Assembly (NCBI GenBank): GCA_030653505.1
Contig: JAURZK010000185.1
Span: forward strand, 13,807 to 77,806
From: Rubrivivax sp.
Lineage (GTDB): Bacteria; Pseudomonadota; Gammaproteobacteria; Burkholderiales; Burkholderiaceae_C
Direction of reading: 5' to 3'
Length of the DNA: 64,000 nucleotides
The translations under genes and the position numbers were made by a program. Under the pieces are notes generated by a model. That model did no database searches. It was given only the letters and a program-made list of their open reading frames with translations, and was not told the DNA's origin. Below, in pieces: positions 5,492 through 21,010 of this stretch (the first letter of the stretch is position 1; every line of letters begins with the position of its first letter).

Positions 5492-6658
5492 CTAGCGCTT
5501 CTCAATGGCGTGCTTCAAGAAGGCACGGCCTTCCGCCAGCCTTCGGGCCGTACGCTGGATGGCCAGGCGCCGCACGACGGGTGCCGCACCTGCGCTGGCG
5601 TCGACGTCCGCCTCCACATAGATGACCCCCGATGGGTGGCCGAAGGCCAGCGTCCTCGTGACCTGGCCACGCGCCGCAGTGAGGATGCGGTGCGGCAAGC
5701 TGCCCGGGATCCGGCAGGCCAGGCCGGTGGTGGCGGTGAGCGTGCCCGCCAATGTCTTGCTGGCAGATCCCGAAGCGAACTGCCTCACCACCAGGTCGAT
5801 GCCCGCCGCCTCGATCAGCTCACCCTGGGTGCAACTGCGGTAGGCGGCGGGTGCGCTCAGCACGATCAACATGGGTGTCGACGGCGCCATGCGTGAATCC
5901 CAGTACGCGCGCAGGCCGCAGCGGTAGGCCACGGCCTGTCGGATGGCGTCCATGCGGCGCTTCAGGTCTTCACTGGCGTCGATCTCTTCCGGCGACTCGA
6001 TGCCGCTCATCCCCAGCGCGGTGTGGTGCACGTAGATCGCCATGTTGGCGCCATCGACAATCGACATCTCCACCGCGCCAACGCCGGGTACGTCCAGTAC
6101 CTCAGCCGCTTGGCCCGTGGGCAGCAAGGTGCCGGTGATCGCACCCACCGCCTGCGAGAAATCGAGCGAGATGGCCGCGCCGGTGCCGGGTACGCCGCCA
6201 ATGGCGAGGCTGCCGCGCCATTGCGGCTGGCCGTCCCGCACCGGCACCTCGACGCGGATCACGCGGTCGGTGTTGACGTTGTGCACCCGCACGACCGTGG
6301 TGCCGTCCACCGGTGCCACCAGGCCTTCCTGGATGGCATAGACACCCACGGCCGCCGTCAGGTTGCCGCAGTTCAGCTTGTAGTCCACCTCGCCGCGCAC
6401 CGTGCCGACCTGGCCGAACAGGTAGGTCACGTCGGTGCCCTCGCGCACCGGCGGGCCGATGATGGCGGCCTTGCTGGTGAGCTTGTCGGCGCCGCCCAGG
6501 CCATCGATCTGCCTCCGGTCGGGGCTGCCGAAGAGGTCGAGCAGGACGAGGCTGAGTTGCTCGCGGTCCGTGGGCACGTCCTGGGCGCGCAGGAAGATGC
6601 CCTTGCTGGTGCCCCCCCGCATCAGCACGAACGGCAGGTCGTCGCGCAGGATGCTCAT
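5492..6658 (-). CDS. PrpF/FldA-family isomerase (aconitate/methylaconitate/oxalomesaconate isomerase-like)
   Basis: N-terminal MRGGTSKG motif, RQIDGLGGA..LTSK and NCGNL motifs. Confidence 0.9.
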   Translation of the reverse strand: MSILRDDLPFVLMRGGTSKGIFLRAQDVPTDREQLSLVLLDLFGSPDRRQIDGLGGADKLTSKAAIIGPPVREGTDVTYLFGQVGTVRGEVDYKLNCGNLTAAVGVYAIQEGLVAPVDGTTVVRVHNVNTDRVIRVEVPVRDGQPQWRGSLAIGGVPGTGAAISLDFSQAVGAITGTLLPTGQAAEVLDVPGVGAVEMSIVDGANMAIYVHHTALGMSGIESPEEIDASEDLKRRMDAIRQAVAYRCGLRAYWDSRMAPSTPMLIVLSAPAAYRSCTQGELIEAAGIDLVVRQFASGSASKTLAGTLTATTGLACRIPGSLPHRILTAARGQVTRTLAFGHPSGVIYVEADVDASAGAAPVVRRLAIQRTARRLAEGRAFLKHAIEKR

Positions 6659-7078
6659 TCAGCCTGCGCGCTGGAAACGCGGGATGCTGATCTCGGGCGT
6701 GACGGGGTCGAACACCACCTGCACCACGTCGCCCACTTTCACGTCGGAAGGCGCGATGCCCACCACGTTGCTGATCATGCGCGGCCCCTCGTCCAACTGG
6801 ATCAGCGACACGTTGTAGGGCACGTCGCCGGTGAAGGTTGCGTTGTAGATCTGGTGGAACACGATGCTGGAATGCACGGTGCCGCGTCCCGAGATGGTCT
6901 TCCACTCGAAGCGGTCCGACAAGCAGTGCGGGCACACGTGGTTGATGGGGTAGCGCGGTTCGCCGCAGTCACCGCAGTGCTGCAGCGCCAGCTGCTGCTG
7001 TCGCGCGGCCGTCCAGAAGGGTCTGTTGGCGTCGTCCAGCGTGGGTAGGGGCTTGTCGTAGGGCTTGCTGTCGCTCAT
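6659..7078 (-). CDS. DUF35 Zn-ribbon/OB-fold protein
   Basis: FW.A.....L..QHCGDCG...YP...CPHC, then OB-fold V.L.EGPRM.SN(V). Start is ATG 7078 (MSDSKP). Confidence 0.9.
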   Translation of the reverse strand: MSDSKPYDKPLPTLDDANRPFWTAARQQQLALQHCGDCGEPRYPINHVCPHCLSDRFEWKTISGRGTVHSSIVFHQIYNATFTGDVPYNVSLIQLDEGPRMISNVVGIAPSDVKVGDVVQVVFDPVTPEISIPRFQRAG

Positions 7079-7092
7079 CTCGGTCTTCCCTT

Positions 7093-8241
7093 TCAGGCTG
7101 CGCGCAGGATCATCGCGTTGGCACAGTTCAGCGTCATGCCGCGGCCGGACACCAGGCAAGTCCGGGCGTCCGGCACCTGGCGCTCGCCGCAGGTGCCGCG
7201 CATCTGCCGCACACCTTCCACGGCATGCAGCCAGCCTTCCATGTACGACTCGGAGAGGTTGCCGCCGGCGGTGTTCACCGGCAGCTGCCCGCCCAGCTCG
7301 ATGCGGCCGTCTTCGGTGAAAGGCCCGCCTTCGCCCAGGCCGCAAAAGCCCGCGTGCTCCAGCCACAGGATCACGCTCATCGTGAAGTTGTCGTAGAGCT
7401 GCGCCACGTCGATGTCCTTGGGGCCCAGGCCGGCCATGCGGTAGGCGCGGTCCAGCGCGTCCTTCTGGTGGGGCACGTACCACCAGTTCTCGCGCTCCAT
7501 GTTCTGCGTGGTGTAGGCCTGGCCCATGCCGGAGATCAGCACCGGCGTCTGCTTCAGGTCCCGGGCGCGTTCGGCCGACGTCACGATCAGGCACACACCG
7601 CCGTCGCTGATCAGGCAGCAGTCGAGGAGGTGGAACGGTTCGACCACCATGCGCGAAGCCTGGTGCTCTTCGATGGTGAAGCGCTCGCGCATCACGGCGC
7701 TGGGATTCATCGAGGCGTGCTTTCGGCAGGCCACCGCCACGTTGCCGAGGTGCCGGCTGGTGGTGCCGTACAGGGCCATGTGGCGGCTGGCGGCCATGGC
7801 GCTGTTGGCCGCTGCACCGAACATGCCCCAGATGCCCCAGGAATCGCCCCAGCCCGAGGCACGGCCGAAGCGGTAGTTGCCGGTTCGCGCCGTGTCCGCG
7901 AAGACGCAAGCCACGTAGTCAGCCATGCCGCACTCGATGGCCATGGCGGCGTTCTGGATGAGCGCCCCGCAGGTGCCCCCGCCCATGGTCATGCTGCCGG
8001 TGTACTTCGGATCGATGCCCAGGGTCTCGCCCATGCGCAGGTAGTTCAGCGAGCCCTCGGGCGAGGTAGTGCCCGGCATGGTCAGCAAGCCATCGATCTG
8101 GTCCTTGCGCAGCCCTGCATCGTCCAGGGCGCGCTTGAACGCCTCGGTGGCCAAGGTCACCGGCGTCGAGCCCGGCAGCTTGCCTTGCGCCGTGGCGCCC
8201 ACGCCCACGATCGCGATCTTGTCCTTCAGGGATGTGCTCAT
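7093..8241 (-). CDS. SCP2-type thiolase-superfamily protein (Ltp2-like aldolase candidate)
   Basis: IAIVGVG start, AQLYDNFT, VNTAGGNLSESY..G..HAVEGVRQMRG. The canonical nucleophile Cys region reads MGGGT. Start is ATG 8241. Confidence 0.88.
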   Translation of the reverse strand: MSTSLKDKIAIVGVGATAQGKLPGSTPVTLATEAFKRALDDAGLRKDQIDGLLTMPGTTSPEGSLNYLRMGETLGIDPKYTGSMTMGGGTCGALIQNAAMAIECGMADYVACVFADTARTGNYRFGRASGWGDSWGIWGMFGAAANSAMAASRHMALYGTTSRHLGNVAVACRKHASMNPSAVMRERFTIEEHQASRMVVEPFHLLDCCLISDGGVCLIVTSAERARDLKQTPVLISGMGQAYTTQNMERENWWYVPHQKDALDRAYRMAGLGPKDIDVAQLYDNFTMSVILWLEHAGFCGLGEGGPFTEDGRIELGGQLPVNTAGGNLSESYMEGWLHAVEGVRQMRGTCGERQVPDARTCLVSGRGMTLNCANAMILRAA

Positions 8242-8261
8242 CTTTTGTCCTCGGGTCCTCG

Positions 8262-9038
8262 TCAGCGGCCGCGGTAGACCGGCGGCCGCTTTTCCTGGAA
8301 GGCGCGGCGGCCCTCGATGCGGTCTTCGGTGTCGCGCAACATGCCGAAGACATAACTCTCCATCGCCAGCGCCTGTGGCAGCGGCAGCGATGCGCCGTCG
8401 CGCACCAGTCGCTTGACCGCGCGCACCGACAGCGGCGCGTTCTGGGCAATGCGTCGCGCGATGGCGAGTACCGTCTCCAGCAGCTGCGCCTGCGGCACCA
8501 CCTGGCTGACCAGTCCGGTGCGCAGGGCTTCCTGCGCATCCACCCGGTCGCCCGTCAGCAGCATCAGCATCGCGTCGGAGCGCCCGATCACACGCGGCAG
8601 GGTCTGCGTGCCGCCGGCTCCCGGGATGCTGCCGATGCGCACCTCCGACAGCGCAAACTGCGCGTTCTCGGAAGCGATGCGCACGTCGCAGGCCAGCGCC
8701 AGCTCCATGCCGCCACCCATGGCGAAGCCATTGATGGCGCAGAGGATGGGCTTGTCCATCTCCATGCCGGCCAGCAGGTGGATGGACTGCGCCTGGCCAA
8801 AGCTGAGCTGGGCCGGGCTCTCCTTGGGCGGCATGGTCTTCTTGAGGTCCGACCCCGTGCAGAAGGCCTTGTCGCCCGCGCCGGTGAGCACGGTGCAGCG
8901 CACGGCATCGTCGCGCGCCACGCGCTGCCAGGCTTCGTGCAGTTCGAGGCGCGTCTCCGGGTCGATCGCGTTCATCGCCTCGGGCCGGTTCAAGGTGATG
9001 ATCGCGACGTGTTCGCGGACTTCGTACAGCAGCGGCAT
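8262..9038 (-). CDS. Enoyl-CoA hydratase/isomerase (crotonase)
   Basis: ITLNRPEAMNA, AFCTGSDL, AINGFAMGGGMELALACD, SEVRIGSIPGAGG. Confidence 0.93.
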   Translation of the reverse strand: MPLLYEVREHVAIITLNRPEAMNAIDPETRLELHEAWQRVARDDAVRCTVLTGAGDKAFCTGSDLKKTMPPKESPAQLSFGQAQSIHLLAGMEMDKPILCAINGFAMGGGMELALACDVRIASENAQFALSEVRIGSIPGAGGTQTLPRVIGRSDAMLMLLTGDRVDAQEALRTGLVSQVVPQAQLLETVLAIARRIAQNAPLSVRAVKRLVRDGASLPLPQALAMESYVFGMLRDTEDRIEGRRAFQEKRPPVYRGR

Positions 9039-9047
9039 GTGTGTCTC

Positions 9048-10412
9048 CTAGGTCTGGGATGTCGCCGCGGCGGCCAGCCACTGGCGCGCCGATGTCCGGT
9101 CCAGGGCCAACGCGCCAGAGACGAGCCGGTCCACATCGGCCCGCGCCTGGCCCCAGGCCAGGCAGTCCTGCAACTTGCTGCGCAGTTCGGCAAGGGTCAG
9201 CGGCGCCTCTGCCGAGCCGCGCAGCTGATCGACGCGGCGCTGCAAGGTCTGGCCGTCGCGCAAGGTCAGCGTGATGTCGGCCCAGCGAGGGAACGCCGGA
9301 CCATCGCCGCTGTCGTCGGTGCTGACCTGCACGAAGAAGGTCTGCGCTTCGGGGCGCTGCACGGCGGCATCGGTGAAGCTGGACAGCCGCACGTCGCCAT
9401 CCAACAGCGCCGCGGCCACGGCGTACTGCATCGAGAACTTCGCTTCGAGGCCGGTCTGGGGCCGTGTGTGGATCAGCGGCGTCAGTGCGCCTGCGCTGGT
9501 ACGCACGTGCACCGTCTGCACGTCAGCCAGCGCGAGGCCCTGTTCGGCACGCAGGTCGAGCACCCCATCCAGCGTGCGGTGTGTGGCGTAACACAACGGG
9601 TACTTCTTGACCTCGATGCCGCTGCTGATCAGCTCCAACGGGCCCTGCCCCAGCGTGGCCAATTGCGCCTGCAGCGACTCGCCATGGCCATACAGGTCCA
9701 CATAACCGAAGGCGTCGTCCAGCACACCCGGCGCGGCATCGAAGCCTTCGGCCGCGAGCAGTGCTGCACGCAGACCGGCGGCATTGCTGTGGCCGGCCTG
9801 GAAGGACTTGGCGTGGGTGCCGAAGTTGGCCCGCGTACCTGCGGCCTGCGCCACCGCCAGCCCGATGGCGTGGGTGGTGCGCGCAACGTCCAGGCGCAGC
9901 AAGCGGGCGCAGGCCACCGCCGCCGCGAGGGTGCCGATGCTGGCCGTGGAGTGCCAGCCGCGTGCATAGTGCTTCAGCGCCATGGCCTTGGACAGCTTGC
10001 AGATCACCTCGAAGCCCACGACATAGGCGCATACCAGCTCGGCGCCATCGGTATCGCTCGCTTCCGCCAGCCCCAGCAGCGCCGGCAGCAGCGCAATGCT
10101 CGGATGGCCGCGCAGCGGCGAGGTCACGTCGTCGAAGTCCAGCACATGCCCGGCCACGCCGTTGCACAGCGCGGCCAGCTCCAGCGGCAGTCGCTCGCCG
10201 CTGCCCCAATGGCTGGCGGCCCGCCCTGGCGCGGGCAATGCGCTGGCGCGGGCGTATTGCAGTGCCAGTTGCGAGGCCGGCTCGTGACACCCGGCGATGG
10301 CGCAGGCATAGGTGTCTACGAGCGCGCGCCCGGTGGCGTGAAGCAGATCGGCCGTCAGCTGCCGGGTCTGGAAGCCGCAGGCGAAGTGGGCGATACGTTC
10401 GGCTGCCTTCAT
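9048..10412 (-). CDS. MmgE/PrpD family protein
   Basis: NGVAGHVLDFDD, GHPS, RGWHST, K.FQAG, K.YPLCYATH motifs. Confidence 0.92.
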   Translation of the reverse strand: MKAAERIAHFACGFQTRQLTADLLHATGRALVDTYACAIAGCHEPASQLALQYARASALPAPGRAASHWGSGERLPLELAALCNGVAGHVLDFDDVTSPLRGHPSIALLPALLGLAEASDTDGAELVCAYVVGFEVICKLSKAMALKHYARGWHSTASIGTLAAAVACARLLRLDVARTTHAIGLAVAQAAGTRANFGTHAKSFQAGHSNAAGLRAALLAAEGFDAAPGVLDDAFGYVDLYGHGESLQAQLATLGQGPLELISSGIEVKKYPLCYATHRTLDGVLDLRAEQGLALADVQTVHVRTSAGALTPLIHTRPQTGLEAKFSMQYAVAAALLDGDVRLSSFTDAAVQRPEAQTFFVQVSTDDSGDGPAFPRWADITLTLRDGQTLQRRVDQLRGSAEAPLTLAELRSKLQDCLAWGQARADVDRLVSGALALDRTSARQWLAAAATSQT

Positions 10413-11629
10413 TGCAGCACCCCCTGCGCCCGGAGCGCGTCGATCTCGCCCGGTGTCAGCGCCAGAAGCTCGCGCAGCACCTCATCGGTGTGCTGGCCCA
10501 GCAGCGGCGCGGGCCTGTTCGGCAACCCCGGCGTGCGCGACAGGCGGGCGGGCAGGGCGTTGTAGACCGTGCGGCCCATCTCCGGATGGTCCAGATACAC
10601 CCAATGGCCGCGTGCCTGCAACTGAGAATCGCGGAGCAGTACGTCCGCCGCGTCCTGCACCGGGCCCGCGGACACGCCCAGCGCCTGCAGTCGTTGCGCC
10701 AGCTGCCCTGCGTCATGCAGGGCCGTGCAGCGGGCCAGGGCGGCGTCCAGAGCCTCGCAGTGCTGCCAGCGCGCCGTGGCGCTGGCGAAGCGTGTGTCCT
10801 GCGCCAACTCGGGCGCTTCCAGCACCTGCAGCAGCGCTTGCCAGGCGGCGTCGCCGGGCGCCGAGAGGGCGATCCAGCGGTCGTGTCCTTGTGTCGGGTA
10901 CACGCCGTGCGGCGCGCCTGCGAGATGCCGGTTGCCCACCCGCTCGGCCACTCGGCCGTTGGCGGTGTAGTCCAGCACGGCCGGGCCCAGCAGCGAGATG
11001 GTGGGCTCGATCTGCGCCACGTCTATGAACTGCCCCTCCCCGGTACGGCGACGGTGCCGCAGGGCGGCCAGCACGGCAAAGGCCGCGTGGGTGGGGTTGG
11101 GCACGTGGTCGGGGAAGTTCGTGCCCGTGCCTGCGGGCTGCTGGTCGGGCAGGCCACACAGGTGGTGCAGGCCGGTGACCGCACCCATGGTCAGTCCGTA
11201 GCCCAGGTAGTTGGCCTCCGGGCCGGTCTGGCCGTGCATCGACATCGAGACATAGACGATGTCCGGCTTCATTTCGCGCACGGCCTCGTAGCCCAGGCCG
11301 AACTTCTCCATCGTGCCCGGGGTGAAGTTGTTCGCCACCACGTCGCTCCGAGCAACGAGCTGGCGCGCCAGCCTCTGGCCGGCTGCGGTCTTGAGGTTCA
11401 GCGTGACACTGCGCTTGCTGGAGTTGCGATCGGCGAAGTAGCCGCTGCGGTTGACGCCGCGCACACCGTCCTTGAACGGCTTGGCGTCGCGCAAGGTGTC
11501 CAGACGTTCCGCACTTTCAACCTTGATCACGTCGGCCCCGAAGTCGCCCAGGATCTTGGTCGTGTAGGAGCCGGCGCCTATCCAGGTGAAGTCGGCCACG
11601 CGGATGCCGGCCAGCGGAAAGGGCTTCAT
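10409..11629 (-). CDS. CaiB/BaiF family III CoA-transferase subunit (lacks the usual active-site Asp)
   Basis: PLAGIRVADFTW..AG....ILGDFGADVIKVE, NSSKRSVTLNLK, NFTPGTMEKFGLGY; start is ATG 11629 with ATGA overlaps on both sides. Confidence 0.9.
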   Translation of the reverse strand: MKPFPLAGIRVADFTWIGAGSYTTKILGDFGADVIKVESAERLDTLRDAKPFKDGVRGVNRSGYFADRNSSKRSVTLNLKTAAGQRLARQLVARSDVVANNFTPGTMEKFGLGYEAVREMKPDIVYVSMSMHGQTGPEANYLGYGLTMGAVTGLHHLCGLPDQQPAGTGTNFPDHVPNPTHAAFAVLAALRHRRRTGEGQFIDVAQIEPTISLLGPAVLDYTANGRVAERVGNRHLAGAPHGVYPTQGHDRWIALSAPGDAAWQALLQVLEAPELAQDTRFASATARWQHCEALDAALARCTALHDAGQLAQRLQALGVSAGPVQDAADVLLRDSQLQARGHWVYLDHPEMGRTVYNALPARLSRTPGLPNRPAPLLGQHTDEVLRELLALTPGEIDALRAQGVLQ

Positions 11630-12876
11630 GCGATCACGCCCTGGCGCAGGAGCACGGCCTGGACATCGGCGTCGTAACCCAGGGCGGCCAGCACTTCGGC
11701 GCTGTGCTCCCCCAGCCGCGGCGCGGGGCGACCCAGGCGCCACGGCGAGGCGGACAGGCGGTAAGGCGCGCCTGGCACGGTGAGCGTACGCCCGCTGTAG
11801 GGGTGAGGCGTCTGCTCGAAGTAGCCACGGTGGGCCAGTTGGCGGTTGTGCATCAGGTCGGCGGTGGTGCTCACTGGACAGATCGGGATGCGGCGCCGCT
11901 GGCCTTCGGCATACAGCTCGGCCTTGGGGTGTGCGGCCGCATAGGGCTCGAACACCTGCGCGAAGAGATCCTTGGCTTCGGCCGTTGCCAGGAAGCCGGC
12001 GTCGTGCCACCGCGGCTCGCGCAACTGGGCGGCCCCGGGGGCTTGCACGTCCGCCATCCATTGGGCCGTCACGTCCCAGAACTTGTTCGAAGCGATGCCG
12101 CCAGCCATGAGGTACACCATGCCGTCGCTGCACGGAAACACGCCGGTGCCGGCCTGGCGTTGCTGACCCGCATTGCGCTGGCGCACGGTGTTCTCCAGTT
12201 CGACGAACTGCACGGCGTTCTCCAGCGCCATGGCCACACTTTCCTGCACAGACACGTCCACGTGCTGGCCTTGGTGCTCGCCGGCTTGTCCTTCGACGTC
12301 CCATAGCGCCACCATCGCGGCCACGGCCGCGAACTGCGCGGCGGCCAGCAGCGCCTGGTTGCCATAAGGGGCGGTCGGCGCCAGGCCGGGGTAGCCGCCC
12401 AGCGACAGCAGGCCGCCGTAGGCCAGCGCCACCAGGTCGCCGCCTTCGTACTGCGCATACGGGCCGTCTTGCCCGAAGGTCGTGATGCTGGTGGTCACGA
12501 TGCCGGGCTGCAGGTGGGCCAAGGCGGCGTGATCCAGGCCGCGCGCTTGCATCCGGCCGGGCCGTTCGCACTCGATCACCAGGTCCGCGTGTTGAACCAG
12601 CGCGCGAAAGATCTCTTGCCCCTGCGCTTCGTCCAGATCCAATGCCACGCCGCGCTTGCCCTGGTTGAAATAGGCAAAGCCAAGGCTGTGTTCGGGGTGG
12701 ACGTGGTCGTCGAGAAAGGGACCCTCGCGCCGGCCCGCACAGCCCGTGGGTGGCTCGACCAGCAGCACATCGGCACCGAGTTGCGCGAACAGCTTGCCGC
12801 AGTACTGCTCGCTGCCCTGAGCGAGATCGAGTACCCGGATACCCGAGAGCGGGCCTGAAGCGGATGGCGATGTCAT
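11626..12876 (-). CDS. CaiB/BaiF family III CoA-transferase subunit
   Basis: PLSGIRVLDL...CGKLFAQLGADV..VEPP, NQGKRGVALDL, FGQDGPYAQYEGGDL; start is ATG 12876. Confidence 0.9.
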   Translation of the reverse strand: MTSPSASGPLSGIRVLDLAQGSEQYCGKLFAQLGADVLLVEPPTGCAGRREGPFLDDHVHPEHSLGFAYFNQGKRGVALDLDEAQGQEIFRALVQHADLVIECERPGRMQARGLDHAALAHLQPGIVTTSITTFGQDGPYAQYEGGDLVALAYGGLLSLGGYPGLAPTAPYGNQALLAAAQFAAVAAMVALWDVEGQAGEHQGQHVDVSVQESVAMALENAVQFVELENTVRQRNAGQQRQAGTGVFPCSDGMVYLMAGGIASNKFWDVTAQWMADVQAPGAAQLREPRWHDAGFLATAEAKDLFAQVFEPYAAAHPKAELYAEGQRRRIPICPVSTTADLMHNRQLAHRGYFEQTPHPYSGRTLTVPGAPYRLSASPWRLGRPAPRLGEHSAEVLAALGYDADVQAVLLRQGVIA

Positions 12877-12952
12877 GTTGGCGCTGGCATGGGGTTGCGG
12901 CGCATCGTAGGCGCGCGCCTCGTCGAGAACAACCGGGCAAGGGCGCTCGAGT

Positions 12953-13036
12953 GTCCACATAGTGATATTTGCTGTTCCGGCAGCGCAGCGCCGGGTCGCA
13001 GATTTGCGTGTGCAGTTGTTATTCCAGTATGTGGAC
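12953..13036. promoter_or_regulatory. Two copies of a 15-bp operator-like motif in the divergent promoter region
   Basis: GTCCACATAGTGATA at 12953-12967 and TTCCAGTATGTGGAC at 13022-13036; the same motif recurs at 17760, 17849, 19673 and 35150. Confidence 0.55.
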
Positions 13037-13109
13037 TTGTTTATGACCCCAATCCACTCGCGCTGCGCCTGGCCTGTCCCACACTCGATGCACAACAACG
13101 GAGACAAAC

Positions 13110-14093
13110 GTGAAGCACACCCTGAACACCGGTCGGCGCATCGTGCTGGGCGCGGCTCTCGCGGCGACGCTGGCTGCATCGGCCCCCGCGCAAGCGCAGG
13201 ACTTCCCGAACAAGCCCATACGCCTCATCGCCCCCTTTGCCGCCGGCGCCAGCACCGACTTCCTGGCCCGTACCGTGGCGCAGTCCATGAGCAAGGAACT
13301 CGGGCAGCAGGTGGTGGTCGAGAACAAGCCGGGTGCCGGTGGCATGCTGGCCGCCGAACTGGTGGCGCGCTCGGCGCCGGACGGCTACACCTTCCTGCTG
13401 ACCTCGGCCGGCATCGTGACGATGAACCAGCACATCTATGCGAAGCTGCCCTACGACCCGATCAAGGACTTCACGCCGCTGACCATCGCCGTGCGCATGC
13501 CCATCGTCACGGTGGTGAACCCCTCGGTGCCGGTGAAGAACCTGCATGAACTGCTGGCCTATGCGAAGGCCCATCCAGGCAAGTTGACCTATGGCTCGGC
13601 GGGCACCGGCACGTCGCAGCACCTGGCCGGTGAACTCTTCAAATCCATGGCCGATGTGGACCTGCTGCACGTGCCCTACCGCGGCGGCGGCCCGGCGATG
13701 ACCGACCTGCTGGCCGGGCAGATCGACATGATGTTCGTTCAGGTGCCTTCGGCATTGCCGCAGGTCAAGGCGGGCAAGGTGCGCGCCATTGCGGTAGGCA
13801 GCGACAAGCGCGACGCCAAGCTGCCCGACGTGCCTACCGTGGCCGAGGGCGGCGTGAAGGGCTACAACTCGGACACGTGGTACGGCTTCGTTCTGCCCGC
13901 CGGAGTACCCGCGCCAGTGGTTCAGAAGATGCACGCGGCCGTCGTGAAGGCCCTGAAGGAAAGCGAGCAGAAGCTGTCCGACCAAGGCTTCAACGTCGAT
14001 GGCGGCAGTGCCCGCGAGATGAGCGACACCATAGTCGCCGAATCGAAGAAGTGGGCGGTGGTCATCAAGGCCGCCAACATCAAGCCCGAGTGA
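13110..14093 (+). CDS. Bug/TctC tripartite tricarboxylate transporter substrate-binding protein
   Basis: Signal peptide; FPNKPIRLIAPFAAG..TD.LAR, VENKPGAGG, PDGYT, HVPYRGGGPA..DLLAGQ. Confidence 0.95.
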   Translation: MKHTLNTGRRIVLGAALAATLAASAPAQAQDFPNKPIRLIAPFAAGASTDFLARTVAQSMSKELGQQVVVENKPGAGGMLAAELVARSAPDGYTFLLTSAGIVTMNQHIYAKLPYDPIKDFTPLTIAVRMPIVTVVNPSVPVKNLHELLAYAKAHPGKLTYGSAGTGTSQHLAGELFKSMADVDLLHVPYRGGGPAMTDLLAGQIDMMFVQVPSALPQVKAGKVRAIAVGSDKRDAKLPDVPTVAEGGVKGYNSDTWYGFVLPAGVPAPVVQKMHAAVVKALKESEQKLSDQGFNVDGGSAREMSDTIVAESKKWAVVIKAANIKPE

Positions 14094-14107: not shown

Positions 14108-15331
14108 ATGCATCACACGCACGACTTCCGTGCGGTGTGTTACCCGTTGCGGGTGTACAGCGGCGAGCATGCCTTGACAAGCTTGCACGGCGAGCTGGCA
14201 CGCGCAGGCGCGAAGCGCGCCCTGTTGCTGTGCGGCCGCAGCATCCGTGAGCGCAGCGACCTCGTCGAGCATGTGATGGGGCTGGCCGGAGGACGCATCG
14301 CCGCCGTCTGTGCCGACATCGGCGCCGGTGCGCCGCGCCACCAGGTGGAAGCCGCAGCCGTGCTGGCCGATGAGATGCAGGCCGACGCGCTCATCGCCGT
14401 GGGCGCGGGCAGCGTCACCAAGGCCGCACGGGTGGTCGCGGTGCGCCTGGCTGAAGACGGCCCGCTGGAAGCGCTTGCCACGCAGTACGACGCGCTGGGT
14501 CGCGGCCGCAGCACCCGCCTGCCGAACCCCAAGCTGCCGATCTTCAATGTGCTGACCGCCGCCACCAGCAGCCAGAACCGTGCGGGTGCTTCGATCCGCG
14601 ACGACGCGAACGGCCGTCAGCTCGAGTTCTTCGACCCCAAGACCCGACCGCGCGCCGTCTTCTGGGACGCCAAGGCGCTCTCGACCGCACCGCTGTCGCT
14701 GACGCGCGCTGCGGCGGGCATGGAGTACTGGTGGGCGTTGATGAACCTGGCCGGCGCAGGCGACGAGAACCCTCTGGTGCTGGCGAGCCGCCAACAGTGC
14801 TGGGCCATCGCCCGGGCCGCGATGCCCCGCATCGACGACCCGGCAGACTGGCGGGTGCGGGTCGACCTCTGCGCGGCGTCGCTGCTGCGCACGCGTGACG
14901 AGGACGACGGCGGCCTGCCTCTGGGCGTGGCCTCGGGCAGCCACGAGATGCGCATGCACCCCATCACCCGGGCCGTGTACATGCTGGCGCACAGCCTCTT
15001 CAACACCGGCACCGGCATCAGCCAGCCCGAAGCGACCCTGGCCCTGGCCGCGCCGGCCGTGCGCGTGTTCGGCGACCTCTGTCCCGATGTGGTTGCCGAC
15101 ATCGGCAGGATGCTGGAAGCCGGCGACGCGTCGGCCACCGGGGTGGCCCGTGCCCTCGAGGTCGAGTTCCACCGCTTCGGCTACACGCTGAACCTGCGCG
15201 CGGCCCGCGTGCCGCGCGACCGCGCGCAAGCCGTGATCGAGCACGCCTTGCGCACCTTCAACTGCAATGCCGATGGCTGGATGAACGACAAGGCCAAGCG
15301 CCTGCATCAGATGCTGGCCGAGGTCTTGTAA
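14108..15331 (+). CDS. Divergent iron-containing alcohol dehydrogenase / maleylacetate-reductase-fold protein
   Basis: P.RVYSG...L..L..EL, ADALIAVGAGS, RP.AVFWD...L...P; the metal-ligand motifs are degenerate. Start is ATG 14108. Confidence 0.7.
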   Translation: MHHTHDFRAVCYPLRVYSGEHALTSLHGELARAGAKRALLLCGRSIRERSDLVEHVMGLAGGRIAAVCADIGAGAPRHQVEAAAVLADEMQADALIAVGAGSVTKAARVVAVRLAEDGPLEALATQYDALGRGRSTRLPNPKLPIFNVLTAATSSQNRAGASIRDDANGRQLEFFDPKTRPRAVFWDAKALSTAPLSLTRAAAGMEYWWALMNLAGAGDENPLVLASRQQCWAIARAAMPRIDDPADWRVRVDLCAASLLRTRDEDDGGLPLGVASGSHEMRMHPITRAVYMLAHSLFNTGTGISQPEATLALAAPAVRVFGDLCPDVVADIGRMLEAGDASATGVARALEVEFHRFGYTLNLRAARVPRDRAQAVIEHALRTFNCNADGWMNDKAKRLHQMLAEVL

Positions 15332-15362
15332 GCCTGTCCTTCACGACCCCCAAGGAGAACCG

Positions 15363-16343
15363 ATGAACCGTCATACCTTCTTGCGCTCGCTTACCGCCTG
15401 CGCTGCCTGGACGCTGGTTGCTGGCACGGCCGCTGCGCAGACCTTCCCGAGCCGACCGATCAAGATGATCGTGCCCTTCAACGCTGGTGCTTCGGTGGAC
15501 ACGATCGCGCGCCACATGGCACAGCTGATGGCCAAGAAGCTGAACCAGACGGTGGTGGTCGAGAACCGTCCCGGCGCCAACGCCGCCATCGCCGCGCAGG
15601 CCGTAGCCAATGCGCCGGCCGACGGCTACACGATCTTCTTCGCCTCGGACTCTGCGCTGGTGTTGAACGGCCTGCTGTACAAGAAGCTGGCCTATGACGC
15701 CGAGCGCGACTTCACGGCGGTGGCACTGGGCGCCAATGTGCCGCTGGTGATGCTCGTGAACGCCTCATTGCCGGTCACCAACCTGAAGGAGTTCGTCGCC
15801 TACGGCAAGCAGAACCCGGGCATATTGAATTACAGCTCCACAGGCACCGGCGGTGCCTTCCACTTGGCGGGCGAGATGTTCTCGCAGGCCGCGGGCATCG
15901 ACATGACTCACATCCCCTTCACTGGCGGCGCGCCGGCCTTGCAGGCGCTGCTCGGCGGTCAGGTGCAGGTCATGTTCGGCATCGTCGGTTCATCGCTGCC
16001 GCACGTGCGTGCAGGCAAACTGCGGGCCCTGGCGCTGGTCACCAAGGAGCCGGTCAATGTGCTGCCCGGTGTGCCCACGCTTCACGGCAGTGGCTACCCA
16101 GGCCTGGAGGCCATGGTGCGTTATGGCCTCGTCGTCCACAAGAAGACAACCCCCGAGGTGCTTGCGGTGCTGAGTGAGGCCGCCAATCACGCGCTGGCCG
16201 ATGCCGGCTACCGCGAGAAGTTAACCGGTGAAGGGTACCTGGTGCCTGAACCGCACAAACCTGCGGTCTTTGACCAGAATCTGGCCGCCGACCGCACACG
16301 CTGGCAGGCACTGATCAAGTCGCGCAACATCAGCCTCGAGTGA
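15363..16343 (+). CDS. Bug/TctC substrate-binding protein
   Basis: FPSRPIKMIVPFNAG, VENRPGANA, ADGYT, HIPFTGGAPA.QALLGGQ. Confidence 0.95.
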   Translation: MNRHTFLRSLTACAAWTLVAGTAAAQTFPSRPIKMIVPFNAGASVDTIARHMAQLMAKKLNQTVVVENRPGANAAIAAQAVANAPADGYTIFFASDSALVLNGLLYKKLAYDAERDFTAVALGANVPLVMLVNASLPVTNLKEFVAYGKQNPGILNYSSTGTGGAFHLAGEMFSQAAGIDMTHIPFTGGAPALQALLGGQVQVMFGIVGSSLPHVRAGKLRALALVTKEPVNVLPGVPTLHGSGYPGLEAMVRYGLVVHKKTTPEVLAVLSEAANHALADAGYREKLTGEGYLVPEPHKPAVFDQNLAADRTRWQALIKSRNISLE

Positions 16344-16356
16344 GGGTGGCCAAGGC

Positions 16357-16947
16357 ATGATTGGCGAGGACCCCACACGCACCCCGATCCACGCGCGTGA
16401 CGTGCAGTTCCGCAGTTACTTGCGCCAGGACGGCCTGTGGGACATCGAGGCAACGCTGCTGGACACCAAAGCCTACGACCAGGTGGCCATCGAGCGCGGC
16501 GCGCTGCTGGCGGGCACGCCCATCCACCACATGCACATCCGGCTGAGTATCGATGACAGCTTCACGGTGCGCGAAGTGCAGGTGGCGATGCCGGCCACCC
16601 CCTTCGGCGAATGTCAGCACACGCGCGCGCCACTGGATCTGCTGGTGGGCAGCTGCGTCGGCAGTGGATGGCGCAAGATCATCCAGGAGAAGATGGGCGG
16701 CGAGCGGGGCTGCACGCACCTGCGCGAACTGCTGGCCGGGATGGGCACGGTCGCCTTCCAGACTGTGGGCCGCCACCGCGCGCACCTGCGCAGGCAGGCC
16801 GGGTTGCCTGAACCCATTCAACTGACCCCGCGCCCGCCGCTGGGCGAATGCCTGGGATGGGCCTTTGACGGCGCCCCTATGCAGCGTTACCGGCCCGAGT
16901 TCTTCGGCTGGCGGCCGCCGGCGGCCCCTGTACCCTCGAGGGACTGA
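16357..16947 (+). CDS. DUF2889-family protein
   Basis: H.R......Y.R.DGLWDIEA.L.D.K, IHHMHIRL.ID, PFGEC, GCTHL.ELL motifs. Confidence 0.75.
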   Translation: MIGEDPTRTPIHARDVQFRSYLRQDGLWDIEATLLDTKAYDQVAIERGALLAGTPIHHMHIRLSIDDSFTVREVQVAMPATPFGECQHTRAPLDLLVGSCVGSGWRKIIQEKMGGERGCTHLRELLAGMGTVAFQTVGRHRAHLRRQAGLPEPIQLTPRPPLGECLGWAFDGAPMQRYRPEFFGWRPPAAPVPSRD

Positions 16948-17765
16948 GGGGTGGCGGGGGCCGCCTGCGCCTGGCGATCCACCAGTGCAGCCTCGATCGC
17001 ATCCACGGCTGTGCGCAGCAAGGCGGCAATGACCGCCGCGCGCTCCTCGTCGATGCGCGTGGCGACGCTGGACACACTGATGGCCGCCACGGGCTGGCCG
17101 CCGGGCGCACGAATGGCCATGGCCACGGTGCGCACATCGGGCAACTCGAGCACCTTGCTGAGCACATAGCCGCGGGTGCGGGCACGGGCCAAGCTGCGCC
17201 GCAGCACGGCCTCGGAATAGCGGGGGAATCGCTTGGTCGCGCGCTCGAGGTTGGCCCTGCAGACGCGGTCGAGTTCGATGTCGTCCATCGCGCTCAGGAT
17301 GGCTGTCGCGCCCCCACCCACCACCAGGGGTCGGCGCTTGCCCACGTCCAGCACATAAGCCTTGATCGGGGCATTGCCTTCGGTGCGGTCTGTGCACACC
17401 CCATCCAGCCCGGAGCGCTCGGTCAGGAATACGGTGTCGCCGCTGATCTCGGCAATGCGTTCCAGGTGCGGATGCACGATGTCTCGCAGCGCCAGTTGGG
17501 GCGAGGCCGCCAGCCCCATCTCGTACATCGCCGGGCCCAGGAAATAACGCCGGCTTCCGCCTTCTTGCCGCAGCAGACGTTCGGCCACCAAGGCCTGCAG
17601 CAGGCGGTGCGCCGTGGGGCGCTCCAGGCCGGCTGCGCGGTGAAGATCGGCCAGCCGCAGCCCCGAACGCCGTCCCGCGGCCACCAGGCGCATCAGCAGC
17701 GCCACACGCTCCACCACCTGGCTGCCGCTGCTGCGCGCAACCCGGGTGTCTTCCAACGCTTTCAT
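16887..17765 (-). CDS. IclR family transcriptional regulator
   Basis: GSQVVERVALLMR HTH, TAHRLLQALV, RY.LGP, TGDT-like SGDTVFL, effector domain with AAISVS; start is ATG 17765. Confidence 0.92.
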   Translation of the reverse strand: MKALEDTRVARSSGSQVVERVALLMRLVAAGRRSGLRLADLHRAAGLERPTAHRLLQALVAERLLRQEGGSRRYFLGPAMYEMGLAASPQLALRDIVHPHLERIAEISGDTVFLTERSGLDGVCTDRTEGNAPIKAYVLDVGKRRPLVVGGGATAILSAMDDIELDRVCRANLERATKRFPRYSEAVLRRSLARARTRGYVLSKVLELPDVRTVAMAIRAPGGQPVAAISVSSVATRIDEERAAVIAALLRTAVDAIEAALVDRQAQAAPATPQSLEGTGAAGGRQPKNSGR

Positions 17766-17863
17766 TATGTGGACCTCTTTCACAAGCCAGTCACGGCGCA
17801 AGGCATCACGCACTACCTATGATTCTGCCCTCACTCTCGGATCCGGCTGTCCATATGTCGGAA
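17760..17863. promoter_or_regulatory. Two operator-like motif copies, one overlapping the IclR start codon
   Basis: TTTCATTATGTGGAC at 17760-17774 covers the IclR ATG (17763-17765); GTCCATATGTCGGAA is at 17849-17863. Confidence 0.55.
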
Positions 17864-17882
17864 CACATTGCAGGGACACACC

Positions 17883-19070
17883 ATGAACTTCGAGTTGCCC
17901 GAGACCACGCGGATGATTCGCGACACCGTCCGCGAGTTCACCGAGCGCGAGCTCAAGCCGCTGGAGCCGCTGGTCATCCGGCGCGAGGCCGAGCGCGGCT
18001 TGAAGGACGACCCGCTGCTGCCGCCCGAGGTGGAGCACACGCTGCAAGAGAAGGCGCGTGCCATTGGGCTGTGGGGCATCGACGTGCCCGAGGAGTTCGG
18101 TGGGCAGGCCTTCGGCGCGTTGACCAAGTGCGTCGTGACCGAGCAGTTGAAGCATTCCATCGTGCACTTCGTTCCACCGCCGGACAGCCCCAATCTGTAT
18201 CTGCTGAAGGAACTGTGCAAGGGCGCGCAGATCGACAAGTACTTGATGCCCTATGTGCGCGGCGAGAAGAAGAGCTGCATCGCACTGTCGGAGGAGGGCG
18301 CGGGCTCGGACGCGGCGGCCATCCGGACCCGTGCCGAGCGCGTGAACGGCAAGTGGGTGCTGAACGGCGCGAAGATGTGGATCAGCAATGCCCGCCGTTC
18401 GCACTTCATGATCGTCGTGGCCGTGACCGACGCCAGCAAGGGTTCCCGCGGCGGCATCTCGGCGTTCCTGGTGGACCGCGACCACCCGGGCGTGAGCATC
18501 CCCACCTCGTATCCGATGATCGGTGAGTACCACCCCTACCAGGTCTTCTTCGACAACGTGACCCTGGACGACGGCCAGGTGCTGGGCGAGGTGGGCAACG
18601 CGTTCGTGCCCATCACCAACCGACTGGGCGTGCGCCGCCTCGACATCGCCTCGCGCTGCCTGGGATTGGCCGAACGCTGCCTGCAGATGATGATCGAGCA
18701 GGCCAACACGCGGAAGACCTTCGGCCAGCTGCTGGCCGACCGACAGGCCATCCAGTGGATGATCGCCGACAGCTGGCAGGAGCTGGAGATGGTGCGCCTG
18801 CAGGTCTATCAGCTGGCCTGGAAGGTCGACCAAGGCGTGAAGGACTTTCGCCGTGACGGGTCGATGGTGAAGGTGCAGGCGACGGAACTCATCCAGCGTG
18901 TGGCCGACAGGGCCATCCAGCTGTTCGGTGGCATGGGTCTGTCGAAGGAACTGCCGCTGGAATTCATAGCACGTTCGGCACGCGTGCTGCGCATCGTCGA
19001 GGGCCCCAGCGAAGTGCATCGCTGGGTGATAGCTCGCGACCTTTTGAGAAACGGTCTGCCGGCAACCTGA
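17883..19070 (+). CDS. Acyl-CoA dehydrogenase
   Basis: ALSEEGAGSD, WVLNGAKMWISNA, RKTFGQ.LADRQAIQW, IQLFGGMG, RIVEGPSEV (catalytic Glu). Confidence 0.95.
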   Translation: MNFELPETTRMIRDTVREFTERELKPLEPLVIRREAERGLKDDPLLPPEVEHTLQEKARAIGLWGIDVPEEFGGQAFGALTKCVVTEQLKHSIVHFVPPPDSPNLYLLKELCKGAQIDKYLMPYVRGEKKSCIALSEEGAGSDAAAIRTRAERVNGKWVLNGAKMWISNARRSHFMIVVAVTDASKGSRGGISAFLVDRDHPGVSIPTSYPMIGEYHPYQVFFDNVTLDDGQVLGEVGNAFVPITNRLGVRRLDIASRCLGLAERCLQMMIEQANTRKTFGQLLADRQAIQWMIADSWQELEMVRLQVYQLAWKVDQGVKDFRRDGSMVKVQATELIQRVADRAIQLFGGMGLSKELPLEFIARSARVLRIVEGPSEVHRWVIARDLLRNGLPAT

Positions 19071-19672
19071 CGCACTCCGGCTGAGGGTCGGCGGTGCAAA
19101 GGGTGCTGCTGCCGAGGTTCGCGGGGGCGAATGGCCGGGTCGTGGTGCCATGCGCGTCGCAACCCGAGGGGCTGCATTGGCAATGACGGCCCCATGCGCT
19201 TGGTCATGTCGCCGCTGCAAACTGTTCCGAGGCGGGAATCGGTCCTGCGATCCGCGCAGGAGCGGTGCCCAGGGTGCAGGAGTGCCGCCTTCAGGATGTC
19301 GGCATGCGCGCGTCCGTGGCGTGCGACAGCATGGGTCGGACAACCGCAAAACACCAGGCGTCACTCCCCAGCGGCAGCTTCACTGCGGCCACCTTCCGGT
19401 CGAAGGGTTCGGCCCGCGCAACGGATTGTGGCCCTGGAGGAACCCGGGTTCGAAGCTGACGCCGTGCTCGCGCCTCATGCGCGATTCGTCCGACCGTGGA
19501 CAGGGGTTGAACTGTCGAACCACTCCACTTTGTCGATCGCTTGGTCGCAAGTCGTTGTGCAGCTCGAACGCAGCTTCAAGACACTGCGTCGGCGCGCGGG
19601 CGCGACGCGGCCGCGCGTGAGCGCCTACGGGTCTTCCTCATTTGACAGGTCGATCATCCACAGGGACTATTC

Positions 19673-19687
19673 GTCCATGTGTGTGAA
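19673..19687. promoter_or_regulatory. Operator-like motif copy upstream of the NUDIX operon
   Basis: GTCCATGTGTGTGAA, ending 15 nt before ATG 19703. Confidence 0.45.
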
Positions 19688-19702
19688 CAAACCGGTGGCA
19701 GC

Positions 19703-21010
19703 ATGAGCGGCGACAAGCGCCAGCCGCGGCTTGCGGCCACTGTGGTGCTGACCCGCGACGCCCCCGGCGGTCTGGAACTGCTGCTACTGCGCCGTGCAGA
19801 AAAGGGCGACCACAACAGCGGCGCCTGGGTCTTCCCGGGCGGCCTCGTCGACAGCGCCGACCGCCAGTGCCACGCCCTGTGCAGCGGCCTTGACGACGCC
19901 GCAGCCAGCCAGCGGTTGGGCGTCGAGAGCGGGGGGCTGGACATGTTGATCGCCGCGGTGCGGGAGTGTTTCGAGGAAGCCGGAGTGCTTTGCGCCACCG
20001 GGCCCGACGGCCGCATCGTCGACCTGCAGGGCGCGCGCGGCGCCGAACTGTCGGCACAGCGCGGCGCACTCGCCACCGGTGACTGCAGCCTGGCCGATCT
20101 TTGCCGGGCCCACGCCCTGCGCCTTTGCGTCGACCGCCTGCACTACATCGCGCACTGGCTCACGCCCTTCGGCCGCGCCAAGCGATTCGACACCCGGTTT
20201 TTCGTCGCCGTGCTGCCAGAAGGTCAGGTATCCGCGCACGACGCCGTAGAGACCGTCGAGCAGGTGTGGCTGACACCTGCACAGGCCTTGGCGCCACAGA
20301 ACGCACGCCGCCTGATGACACCCACGCGCGCGGTGATCGAGCAGCTCGCGGCCTTTGCCGATACCGCCTCGTTGCTGACATGGGCGCACGCGCCACGCCA
20401 AGTGCAGCGTGTGCTGCCGCGCCTGGCAACGCGCACAGACGGTCCCTGCCCCATCCTGCCCAGCGACCCGGCCTGGCACGAGGTGGGCCGCCTCGATCCC
20501 GACGGCAGCGGCCAGGCCTGGTGCGAGGTCCGCACCGGCGAGCCCGTGGCACTCGCCCCCGGCGTTCTGCGGCTGACGGCGGCCACCACGGGCGCCCACA
20601 GCTACCTCGTCGAGTGCGACCCGGGCGCCTGGGCAGTGATCGACCCCGGGCCACCGGATGCCGTGCACCACGATGCGCTCGTCGCCACCGCGCCGGGCCC
20701 GCTGCGGTGGATCTGCCTGACCGATGGCAATGCCGTCCATGCCCAGGGCGCCGCCGTTCTGGCAGCCCGCACAGGCGCGCAGCTGCTGGACGCCCACCGC
20801 CTGTCCGCCACGGCGCTGGGTACGCTGCTGAGAGCCTGGCCCGGTCCGGCGCCCGGCAGCACCTGCTACCTGCGGGCCGAGGACGGCATGTTGTTCAACG
20901 GTGCGCAAGACCTGCCTGGCGAATGGCTGGCCGCGCACGGCGTCGAGTGGCGGGCTGCGCACAGCGGTTTCCTCACCCCCGCCTTTCCAGCCGCAGAGCC
21001 CCCATCATGA
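19703..21010 (+). CDS. NUDIX hydrolase fused to a degenerate metallo-beta-lactamase-fold domain
   Basis: AATVVL.RD....LE.LLLRR, VFPGG.VD, AAVRECFEEAGV, HWLTP....KRFDTRFF; C-terminal SYLV....WAVIDPGP domain without HxHxDH. Confidence 0.85.
   Translation: MSGDKRQPRLAATVVLTRDAPGGLELLLLRRAEKGDHNSGAWVFPGGLVDSADRQCHALCSGLDDAAASQRLGVESGGLDMLIAAVRECFEEAGVLCATGPDGRIVDLQGARGAELSAQRGALATGDCSLADLCRAHALRLCVDRLHYIAHWLTPFGRAKRFDTRFFVAVLPEGQVSAHDAVETVEQVWLTPAQALAPQNARRLMTPTRAVIEQLAAFADTASLLTWAHAPRQVQRVLPRLATRTDGPCPILPSDPAWHEVGRLDPDGSGQAWCEVRTGEPVALAPGVLRLTAATTGAHSYLVECDPGAWAVIDPGPPDAVHHDALVATAPGPLRWICLTDGNAVHAQGAAVLAARTGAQLLDAHRLSATALGTLLRAWPGPAPGSTCYLRAEDGMLFNGAQDLPGEWLAAHGVEWRAAHSGFLTPAFPAAEPPS

Follow-up and report, generated by a model that had tools for sequence, protein, structure and literature searches.

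We examined a 64,000-nucleotide stretch of Rubrivivax sp. DNA (contig JAURZK010000185.1; the whole stretch is called the window here) that carries, at 5492-12876, seven co-directional minus-strand genes, delimited by open reading frame listing and start mapping (Table 1). The GC content of the window is 64-72% and its source is a member of the Burkholderiales; the nearest named homologue of its PrpF-like protein belongs to a Ramlibacter metagenome-assembled genome (83% identity). Read 5' to 3', the genes encode two family III CoA-transferase proteins (CoAT1 and CoAT2), an MmgE/PrpD protein, a crotonase, a thiolase-like protein, a DUF35 protein and a PrpF protein. Their successive junctions are two ATGA overlaps, so that the CoAT2 gene overlaps both of its neighbours, and gaps of 9, 20, 14 and 0 nt. 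An initial annotation had described seven tightly coupled genes (ATGA overlaps, gaps of 0-20 bp) and assigned each to a family; remapping of the junctions returned the coupling as claimed, and Pfam upholds all seven family calls with E values between 1e-12 and 1e-119. None of the seven proteins reaches any NCBIfam equivalog cut-off, and a scan for promoters and terminators gave no match. The start of CoAT1 at 12876 yields a 416-aa product, which matches the lengths of the orthologues (412-419 aa) better than the 444-aa call of the public contig.

Table 1. Genes and control region of the operon and its divergent neighbours, with positions in the window.
Feature	Position	Strand	Basis
PrpF-family isomerase (predicted)	5492..6658	-	Pfam PrpF 1.4e-98
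Stand-alone DUF35 protein, presumed aldolase partner	6659..7078	-	Pfam zf-ChsH2 + OB_ChsH2_C
Thiolase-fold Ltp2-type retro-aldolase (predicted)	7093..8241	-	Pfam Thiolase_C_1
Crotonase-type enoyl-CoA hydratase	8262..9038	-	Pfam ECH_1 4.8e-73
MmgE/PrpD protein, probable IDS-epimerase/methylsuccinate-isomerase type	9048..10412	-	Pfam MmgE_PrpD N + C domains
CoA-transferase subunit 2 (CoAT2), predicted non-catalytic partner	10409..11629	-	Pfam CoA_transf_3 1.4e-119
CoA-transferase subunit 1 (CoAT1, family III), predicted catalytic	11626..12876	-	Pfam CoA_transf_3 1e-72
Control region between operon and divergent TctC genes	12877..13109
TctC/Bug periplasmic binding protein 1	13110..14093	+	Pfam TctC (identical public contig); 53-80% identical copies elsewhere
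Fe-ADH-fold protein without canonical metal ligands	14108..15331	+	Pfam Fe-ADH
TctC/Bug periplasmic binding protein 2	15363..16343	+	50-76% identical copies in related clusters
DUF2889 protein	16357..16947	+	Pfam DUF2889
IclR-family regulator	16887..17766	-	Pfam HTH_IclR + IclR_C
Acyl-CoA dehydrogenase of the pathway, divergent from IclR	17883..19070	+	Pfam ACAD domains

Enzymes encoded in the operon

The two CoA-transferases had initially been counted as two activities. Judged from their sequences, CoAT1 and CoAT2 are instead the predicted subunits of one heteromer resembling BbsEF, the benzylsuccinate CoA-transferase, with one subunit devoid of the catalytic Asp. CoAT1 matches chain A of the BbsEF structure (9fn0) with an E value of 3.5e-86 (next match, 6.5e-32; chain B, 1.4e-22), and CoAT2 matches chain B (2.2e-105; chain A, merely 2.2e-31); both cross-matches, like every other family III structure, trail by at least 50 orders of magnitude. 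Asp147 of CoAT1 occupies the catalytic column of the family, which holds Asp in the orthologues and Glu in one. At the same position CoAT2 has Gly145, conserved as Gly in all orthologues, and chain B of 9fn0 likewise reads GYG. Because each protein matches a different chain and only one of them carries the Asp, a single two-subunit enzyme is the predicted product. Further support comes from a Devosia cluster, where both transferase halves are fused in one 876-aa protein. The substrate that BbsEF activates, (R)-benzylsuccinate, is a 2-substituted succinate, and the donor is succinyl-CoA (PMC10818641). The fused family III transferase gene of Devosia sp. Root635 (14327-16957 of locus L089) adjoins electron transfer flavoprotein (ETF), PrpF-like and PrpD-like genes.

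Among solved structures, the thiolase-like protein is closest to 4u4e (1e-69) and Ltp2 (6ok1, 3e-68), and matches BbsB at just 2.5e-32. A Gly-Gly-Gly stretch (Gly87-89) replaces the nucleophilic Cys, and Gly at that position precludes thiolysis (PMC12329534). Tyr283 (YDNF) aligns with Tyr294 of Ltp2 and Tyr333 (SESY) with Tyr344 (EAY), which are the catalytic base (YDHF motif) and acid, respectively, of TcLtp2 (PMC12329534). This motif pattern is kept in every homologue from the clusters described below, even at 39-41% identity (YDSF...SESY), whereas the true thiolase at a Variovorax saccharolyticus locus reads HDAF...GHP. As models of a BbsAB thiolase, BbsB and BbsA score only 111 bits (cut-off 750) and 33 bits (cut-off 250). 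The DUF35 protein has Cys35, Cys38, Cys49 and Cys52 in a C-x2-C-x10-C-x2-C arrangement, the canonical Cys4 zinc ribbon of DUF35 (PMC12329534); its domains comprise this ribbon and an OB fold, and it is a separate protein rather than a hydratase domain. The proteins thus have an Ltp2-like thiolase fold without Cys, both tyrosines and a Cys4 DUF35 partner, and by these residues the "thiolase" is a predicted Ltp2-type retro-aldolase. Cleavage should be retro-aldol and not thiolytic, because the nucleophilic Cys is absent and the Ltp2-type tyrosines are present. For the same lack of a Cys nucleophile in every thiolase-fold version of the cluster, we rejected the Fe-ADH-like protein encoded nearby as a 3-hydroxyacyl-CoA dehydrogenase that feeds a thiolase.

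Both catalytic glutamates of the crotonase are retained (Glu112 and Glu132, in motifs GGGME and SEVRIG). No MaoC-type hydratase was found beside the aldolase, whose neighbour is this crotonase, and there are no steroid genes in the window. The initial annotation took crotonase plus Ltp2/DUF35 for an established pair; known Ltp2/Sal aldolases pair with MaoC-type hydratases instead (PMC12329534), and a crotonase as the partner is a feature of Bbs (PMC10818641).

The PrpD-like protein has iminodisuccinate (IDS) epimerase as its best match in the PDB (2hp3, 1e-67), followed by IRG1/CAD proteins, and the search matched no canonical PrpD structure. Scores against the NCBIfam PrpD models are 47.7, 28.4 and 21.1 bits, for cut-offs of 950, 575 and 458, respectively. 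Residues H89, D92, H103, Y149, H154, K202 and K269 align with H85, D88, H99, Y145, H150, K198 and K266 of IDS epimerase, the complete set proposed for two-base epimerisation and common to a proven (S)-(R)-methylsuccinate isomerase (PMC12290011). Every known substrate of the MmgE/PrpD family is built on a C4-1,4-dicarboxylate backbone with a substituent at C2/C3; the methylsuccinate isomerase works on the free acid, not on the CoA ester, with a CoA-transferase and an acyl-CoA dehydrogenase (ACAD) as gene neighbours (PMC12290011). The gene adjacency reported for that isomerase is not seen here: the ACAD gene of the window lies 7.5 kb away, in other versions of the cluster it is two to three genes off, and genes of the Ich or Ccl type are absent from the unit. 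The initial annotation had linked the PrpD family to aconitate- or methylcitrate-like polycarboxylates. Since every residue known from IDS epimerase and methylsuccinate isomerase is retained, the PrpD-like protein is probably an epimerase of a free 2-substituted succinate, which we consider likelier than a dehydratase of aconitate-like acids.

The PrpF-like protein matches the 3-methylitaconate delta-isomerase Mii (3g7k) at 2e-84 versus 2e-58 for PrpF, and scores 232.9 bits against the PrpF model TIGR02334 (cut-off 440.55). Its Lys63 and Cys97 are invariant in the alignment and correspond to Lys62 and Cys96 of Mii, which we take to be the catalytic residues. Mii interconverts a dialkylmaleate and an alkylidene-succinate. 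By sequence the PrpF-like protein is thus closest to 3-methylitaconate delta-isomerase, and the unit contains no aconitase gene (the AcnD partner of PrpF). Canonical methylcitrate-cycle identities for the two proteins, the outcome that would have overturned the initial annotation, were rejected on the sequence side: model scores fall far under the cut-offs (21-48 versus 458-950 bits for PrpD, 233 versus 441 for PrpF) and no prpB or prpC lies nearby. Nor does the whole assembly, which is 93% complete, encode a 2-methylcitrate dehydratase that scores above the model cut-off.

Conservation, extent and control of the unit

Synteny was taken from exact-protein look-ups and whole-genome searches. 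The seven genes recur, with their order kept, in Verminephrobacter eiseniae, Variovorax sp. J22P240 and G609, a genome of another genus in the same family (66-91% protein identity), and this recurrence in three other genomes argues that the arrangement is not a product of chance. Genes for ACAD, the Fe-ADH-like protein, TctC and IclR accompany the operon in about 10 Burkholderiales genomes from several families, with varied gene orders. The layout of G609 and Variovorax sp. J22P240 is that of the window. Achromobacter deleyi and Bordetella petrii have IclR, two CoAT, PrpD, enoyl-CoA hydratase (ECH), aldolase, DUF35, ACAD, TctC, PrpF, Fe-ADH and TctC genes; Pollutimonas subterranea, Bordetella genomosp. 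13 and genome G286 have two CoAT, ECH, ACAD, Fe-ADH, PrpF and PrpD genes, with aldolase and DUF35 nearby. Cupriavidus pauculus divides the cluster over two operons, and Verminephrobacter eiseniae retains only the seven genes and TctC. The conserved set comprises IclR, CoAT1, CoAT2, ECH, ACAD, aldolase, DUF35, the PrpD-like, PrpF-like and Fe-ADH-like proteins, and TctC. Since ACAD, IclR, Fe-ADH-like and TctC genes are conserved with the seven, and an operator-like motif is held in common, the operon is not the self-contained route that the initial annotation proposed.

The ACAD encoded divergently from the regulator is 73-89% identical to the in-operon ACAD of Achromobacter, Bordetella petrii, Cupriavidus, Pollutimonas, G286 and G609, and regulators 45-62% identical to the IclR protein adjoin the orthologous clusters. 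Membership of the DUF2889 gene is uncertain: a 61% identical copy is present in G609, and the gene is linked to the cluster in the closest relatives only and absent from other clusters. The Fe-ADH-like protein finds only weak best matches (65 bits to an NCBIfam model for 4-hydroxybutyrate dehydrogenase, 38 bits in the PDB) and reads GMEYWWALMN where the metal-binding GxDAxxHxxE of iron-dependent alcohol dehydrogenases is expected. This loss of the metal motif, together with an invariant RDEDDGG, is common to its orthologues, and the protein is kept in nine clusters. Its structural model (predicted local distance difference test score, 81) adopts the Fe-ADH fold (template modelling score, 0.7-0.8), with alcohol dehydrogenases and maleylacetate reductases about equal in the fold search. 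It is presumably an NAD(P)-dependent oxidoreductase, and Fe-ADH-fold proteins with RDEDDGG and without the Asp/His ligands appear to form an uncharacterised subfamily.

The control region holds an inverted pair of the operator-like 9-mer TATGTGGAC, at 12953-12961 (-) and 13028-13036 (+). Four exact copies occur in the window; the third, at 17766-17774, abuts the start codon of the IclR gene. Based on our own estimate from base composition, about 0.2 exact matches are expected per window, so the clustering is not explained by chance; with one mismatch allowed there are 9 matches window-wide versus 4.7 expected, which is not significant. Orthologous control regions contain inverted pairs of (C)AATATATGGAC-like words, and related words there include CAATATATGGAC / GTCCATATATTG. 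The fourth exact copy of TATGTGGAC is inside the coding region of the PrpD-like protein, at 9696-9704.

The cluster is rare. Among 400 genomes of the family, and likewise among 400 of the order, a single other genome has a close orthologue of the PrpF-like protein. Close homologues of the aldolase were found in no other genome of 400 from the order, and three genomes of the same genus are without the unit. A scan of the genome collection with the PrpF alignment returned, among the matches listed, distant PrpF relatives only (34-47% identity); among these matches, gene context was shared only weakly, with the Variovorax saccharolyticus locus that has a true thiolase. Just past the cluster of Variovorax sp. 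J22P240 (14916-21146 of locus L097) are integrase (rve) and reverse-transcriptase genes, separated from the PrpF-like gene by genes for a succinate-semialdehyde dehydrogenase and ETF. The rarity and the adjoining integrase and reverse-transcriptase genes fit an accessory, horizontally moved cluster.

A Caballeronia sp. locus (10001-21152 of L090) places a PrpF-like gene before genes for a LeuCD-like aconitase large subunit, an isopropylmalate-dehydrogenase-like protein and an HpcH aldolase; a 170-aa gene after the large subunit has no Pfam match and may encode the small subunit, and an aldolase/DUF35/crotonase/two-CoAT module follows the HpcH aldolase. This order suggests that alkylmalate/alkylmaleate chemistry is linked to the module.

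Further acid catabolism based on CoA-transferases adjoins the unit at 22138-37365 of the window, with all scores under equivalog cut-offs. The region encodes a CitE/RipC(Ccl)-like lyase (22138-23025), an acetyl-CoA hydrolase/transferase (23022-24290), a crotonase with two pimCD-like ACAD subunits (24328-27322) and a TRAP DctM protein (28430-30040). Beyond these, 31052-35079 encodes a RipB/Ich-like MaoC hydratase, an ACAD and two family III CoA-transferases, and genes for an MFS transporter and another IclR protein come next. Elsewhere in the genome, contig C21 carries a paralogous module (about 87.4-89.7 and 112.9-116.4 kb) with a crotonase, an aldolase and a DUF35 protein of 52%, 74% and 46% identity. 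About 23 kb from these genes are CoAT1-like (38%), CoAT2-like (45%) and ACAD (63%) genes, and MmgE/PrpD paralogues lie between. At 12.8-19 kb of the same contig, an MmgE/PrpD paralogue 36% identical to that of the window is directly beside an ACAD gene; genes for a MaoC hydratase, another ACAD and a crotonase accompany them. Because this adjacency is the one reported for methylsuccinate isomerase and its dehydrogenase, a separate route for methylsuccinate may exist in this genome.

A predicted route for 2-substituted C4-dicarboxylates

We give an even chance to the reading that an imported 2-substituted C4-dicarboxylate would be catabolised by a unit of 11-13 genes, under IclR control, with the seven genes at its core. 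We infer that the substrate class is alkyl- or alkylidene-succinates or alkylmaleates, with the C5 acids methylsuccinate, itaconate and citraconate as the simplest candidates and carboxyalkyl versions (tricarboxylates) as possible substrates. Protein families, catalytic-residue patterns, gene linkage, conservation and the common motif are results at the sequence level. From them we propose what class of substrate is used, in which order and with what regiochemistry the steps proceed, and what the PrpD-like, PrpF-like and Fe-ADH-like proteins do.

The TctC proteins would deliver the acid to the cell. While it is still free, the PrpF-like isomerase would shift the double bond between alkylmaleate and alkylidene-succinate, the PrpD-like enzyme would epimerise C2 of the saturated acid, and the Fe-ADH-like protein may carry out some redox step. 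The BbsEF-like heteromer would then move CoA from succinyl-CoA to the acid, after which the ACAD would desaturate saturated esters, a step that unsaturated acids would skip. Following hydration by the crotonase, the Ltp2-type aldolase with its DUF35 partner would cleave the beta-hydroxyacyl-CoA to a carbonyl compound and an acyl-CoA. If the regiochemistry is that of Bbs, these would be an aldehyde and succinyl-CoA, the latter re-priming the transferase. Such re-priming fits the absence of CoA ligase genes from the unit, and an aldehyde product fits the aldehyde or 2-hydroxyacid dehydrogenase genes that adjoin some versions of the cluster.

The BbsEF, MmgE/PrpD and Mii families all point to a substituted succinate or maleate skeleton, which argues for an aldol-cleaving version of Bbs. 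Tentatively, we extend this to a self-priming, CoA-catalytic lyase cycle, the aerobic aldol-cleaving counterpart of benzylsuccinate beta-oxidation. The aldolase would release the very succinyl-CoA that the transferase uses as donor, so that a 2-substituted succinate would yield an aldehyde and succinate without ATP and without consuming CoA on balance. All stereo- and double-bond isomers of alkylsuccinates, alkylitaconates and alkylmaleates could enter this cycle by way of the PrpD-like, PrpF-like and Fe-ADH-like proteins. The activate-isomerise-hydrate-cleave logic of the initial annotation agrees with all the sequence tests that we ran, as does its view that this is not a methylcitrate cycle, while its accounts of the transferases, the PrpD-like protein, self-containment and the crotonase pairing had to be corrected.

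Several observations weigh against the predicted route. Similarity to BbsEF is moderate (about 42-47%, estimated from alignments), and the unit may therefore use another acceptor or regiochemistry than Bbs. The catalytic Tyr of the PrpD-like protein is also found in a Bacillus subtilis IRG1-like family member with no assigned function, and the epimerase reading is therefore not unique. The PDB relatives of three components do not indicate a substrate: those of TctC bind varied carboxylates and are not diagnostic, those closest to the ACAD are generic short-chain ACADs, and those of the crotonase are generic hydratases with no clue to specificity. The Fe-ADH-like protein has no assigned pathway step, no gene for an ACAD or an Fe-ADH-like protein lies within 10 kb of the Verminephrobacter operon, and we only infer that the IclR protein binds the TATGTGGAC sites.

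Alternative substrates and relation to known systems

The same enzymes could serve C5 branched acids specifically (methylsuccinate, itaconate, citraconate and mesaconate) with classical cleavage, either of citramalyl-CoA to acetyl-CoA and pyruvate or of beta-methylmalyl-CoA to propionyl-CoA and glyoxylate, a narrower scheme that we regard as unlikely and yet worth serious attention. It would be a case of non-orthologous replacement, with the crotonase in place of Ich, the Ltp2-like aldolase in place of Ccl and the PrpF-like protein adding citraconate. Its model is the Pseudomonas aeruginosa/Cupriavidus necator cluster (Ict, Ich, Ccl, Mcd and Msi; PMC12290011, PMC9875883), which also joins a family III CoA-transferase, an ACAD and an IDS-epimerase-like MmgE/PrpD isomerase. 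That isomerase acts on a substituted succinate, and the PrpD-like protein of the window keeps its catalytic residues, except for Asp92 where the Pseudomonas enzyme has Glu91. The known cluster cannot use citraconate, which leaves room for an isomerase, and Ltp2 cleaves a tertiary alcohol beside an alpha-methyl thioester (PMC12329534). The unit differs, however, in a heteromeric transferase of the Bbs type rather than a homomeric one of the Ict type, in a crotonase for the MaoC-type Ich, in an Ltp2-like aldolase for the HpcH-type Ccl, and in the added PrpF-like and Fe-ADH-like proteins, the latter with no role in the C5 scheme. The published isomerases are reported always beside their ACAD (PMC12290011), which is not so here, and the window and contig C21 already hold Ich-like, Ccl-like and PrpD-next-to-ACAD genes able to serve C5 acids.

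Tricarboxylate substrates, that is, carboxyalkyl-succinates or -maleates such as tricarballylate, cis- or trans-aconitate and homoaconitate, seem more doubtful. They would yield succinyl-CoA with glyoxylate, malonate semialdehyde or succinate semialdehyde, and the gene downstream of the Variovorax operon encodes a succinate-semialdehyde dehydrogenase (SSADH) that scores above its subfamily cut-off; SSADH-like or 2-hydroxyacid dehydrogenase genes also occur in the Caballeronia and Pollutimonas versions. These accessory dehydrogenases are not conserved across the clusters, however. The two TctC-family binding proteins conserved with the cluster would suit a tricarboxylate, yet Bug/TctC proteins bind many mono- and dicarboxylates. 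Similarly, enzymes of the PrpF and PrpD families classically bind aconitate-like acids, whereas tricarballylate and aconitate need no epimerase and the PrpD-like protein has the residues of a two-base epimerase.

That BbsEF and Ltp2 are the closest solved relatives could point to an aromatic or steroid side chain: benzylsuccinate or phenylitaconate would be used aerobically, or a steroid side chain would be removed as by Ltp2. We consider this very improbable: the window has no BbsCD-type dehydrogenase, ring-degradation or steroid genes, the BbsA and BbsB models score far under their cut-offs, and the importers are carboxylate-binding TctC proteins. The steroid version was rejected, there being no steroid genes and no MaoC ChsH-type hydratase beside the aldolase. 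A variant methylcitrate cycle for propionate, suggested by the family names PrpD and PrpF only, is hardly credible given the PrpD and PrpF model scores (21-48 bits versus 458-950, and 233 versus 441), the lack of PrpB, PrpC and AcnD genes in the unit and of any above-cut-off PrpD anywhere in the genome.

The predicted 2-substituted C4-dicarboxylate route is close in architecture to the Bbs beta-oxidation of anaerobic toluene degraders (BbsEF, BbsG, BbsH, BbsCD and BbsAB). Both pair a two-subunit family III transferase, one subunit of which lacks the Asp, with an ACAD, a crotonase and a thiolase-fold enzyme that is partnered by a DUF35 zinc-ribbon protein. In Bbs, succinyl-CoA serves as the donor and is also formed as a product (PMC10818641). 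Unlike Bbs, the unit has neither a BbsCD dehydrogenase nor a true thiolase (no Cys, Ltp2-type tyrosines); it is found in Burkholderiales that would import the acid via TctC and has extra PrpD-like, PrpF-like and Fe-ADH-like genes. With Ltp2-ChsH2(DUF35) and Sal-Shy it shares the nucleophile-less thiolase fold, the YDxF Tyr, the second Tyr and the Cys4 DUF35 protein. Here the differences are Asn in place of Ltp2 His296 (YDHF), a DUF35 protein that stands alone instead of forming the tail of a MaoC hydratase, a crotonase as the hydratase and the absence of a steroid context. Mii, from the nicotinate fermentation of Eubacterium barkeri, is the best solved relative of the PrpF-like protein (2e-84), with the Lys/Cys pair kept, whereas the window lacks methyleneglutarate mutase, dimethylmaleate hydratase and dimethylmalate lyase and the host is an aerobic betaproteobacterium. 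By its sequences, the unit thus takes parts from the Bbs, Ltp2/Sal and Ict/Ich/Ccl/Mcd/Msi systems and belongs to none of them. The initial annotation knew of no characterised operon with this combination of genes, and full-text literature searches likewise found no paper that describes it.

Itaconate, methylsuccinate, citraconate, alkylitaconates, alkylsuccinates and other branched C4-dicarboxylates occur as immune metabolites and fungal products, arise when hydrocarbons are activated anaerobically, and serve as building blocks for polymers. To our knowledge, the only characterised bacterial route for them is Ict/Ich/Ccl with Mcd and Msi. If our reading is true, the cluster would add another route, one with a different mechanism, and would provide the first physiological setting for three unstudied enzyme subfamilies: for Ltp2-like aldolases outside steroid metabolism, for BbsEF-like transferases in aerobes and for a metal-ligand-less protein of the Fe-ADH fold. 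The presence of the cluster in named isolates (Variovorax sp. J22P240, Achromobacter deleyi, Bordetella petrii, Cupriavidus pauculus and Verminephrobacter eiseniae) makes this role directly testable.

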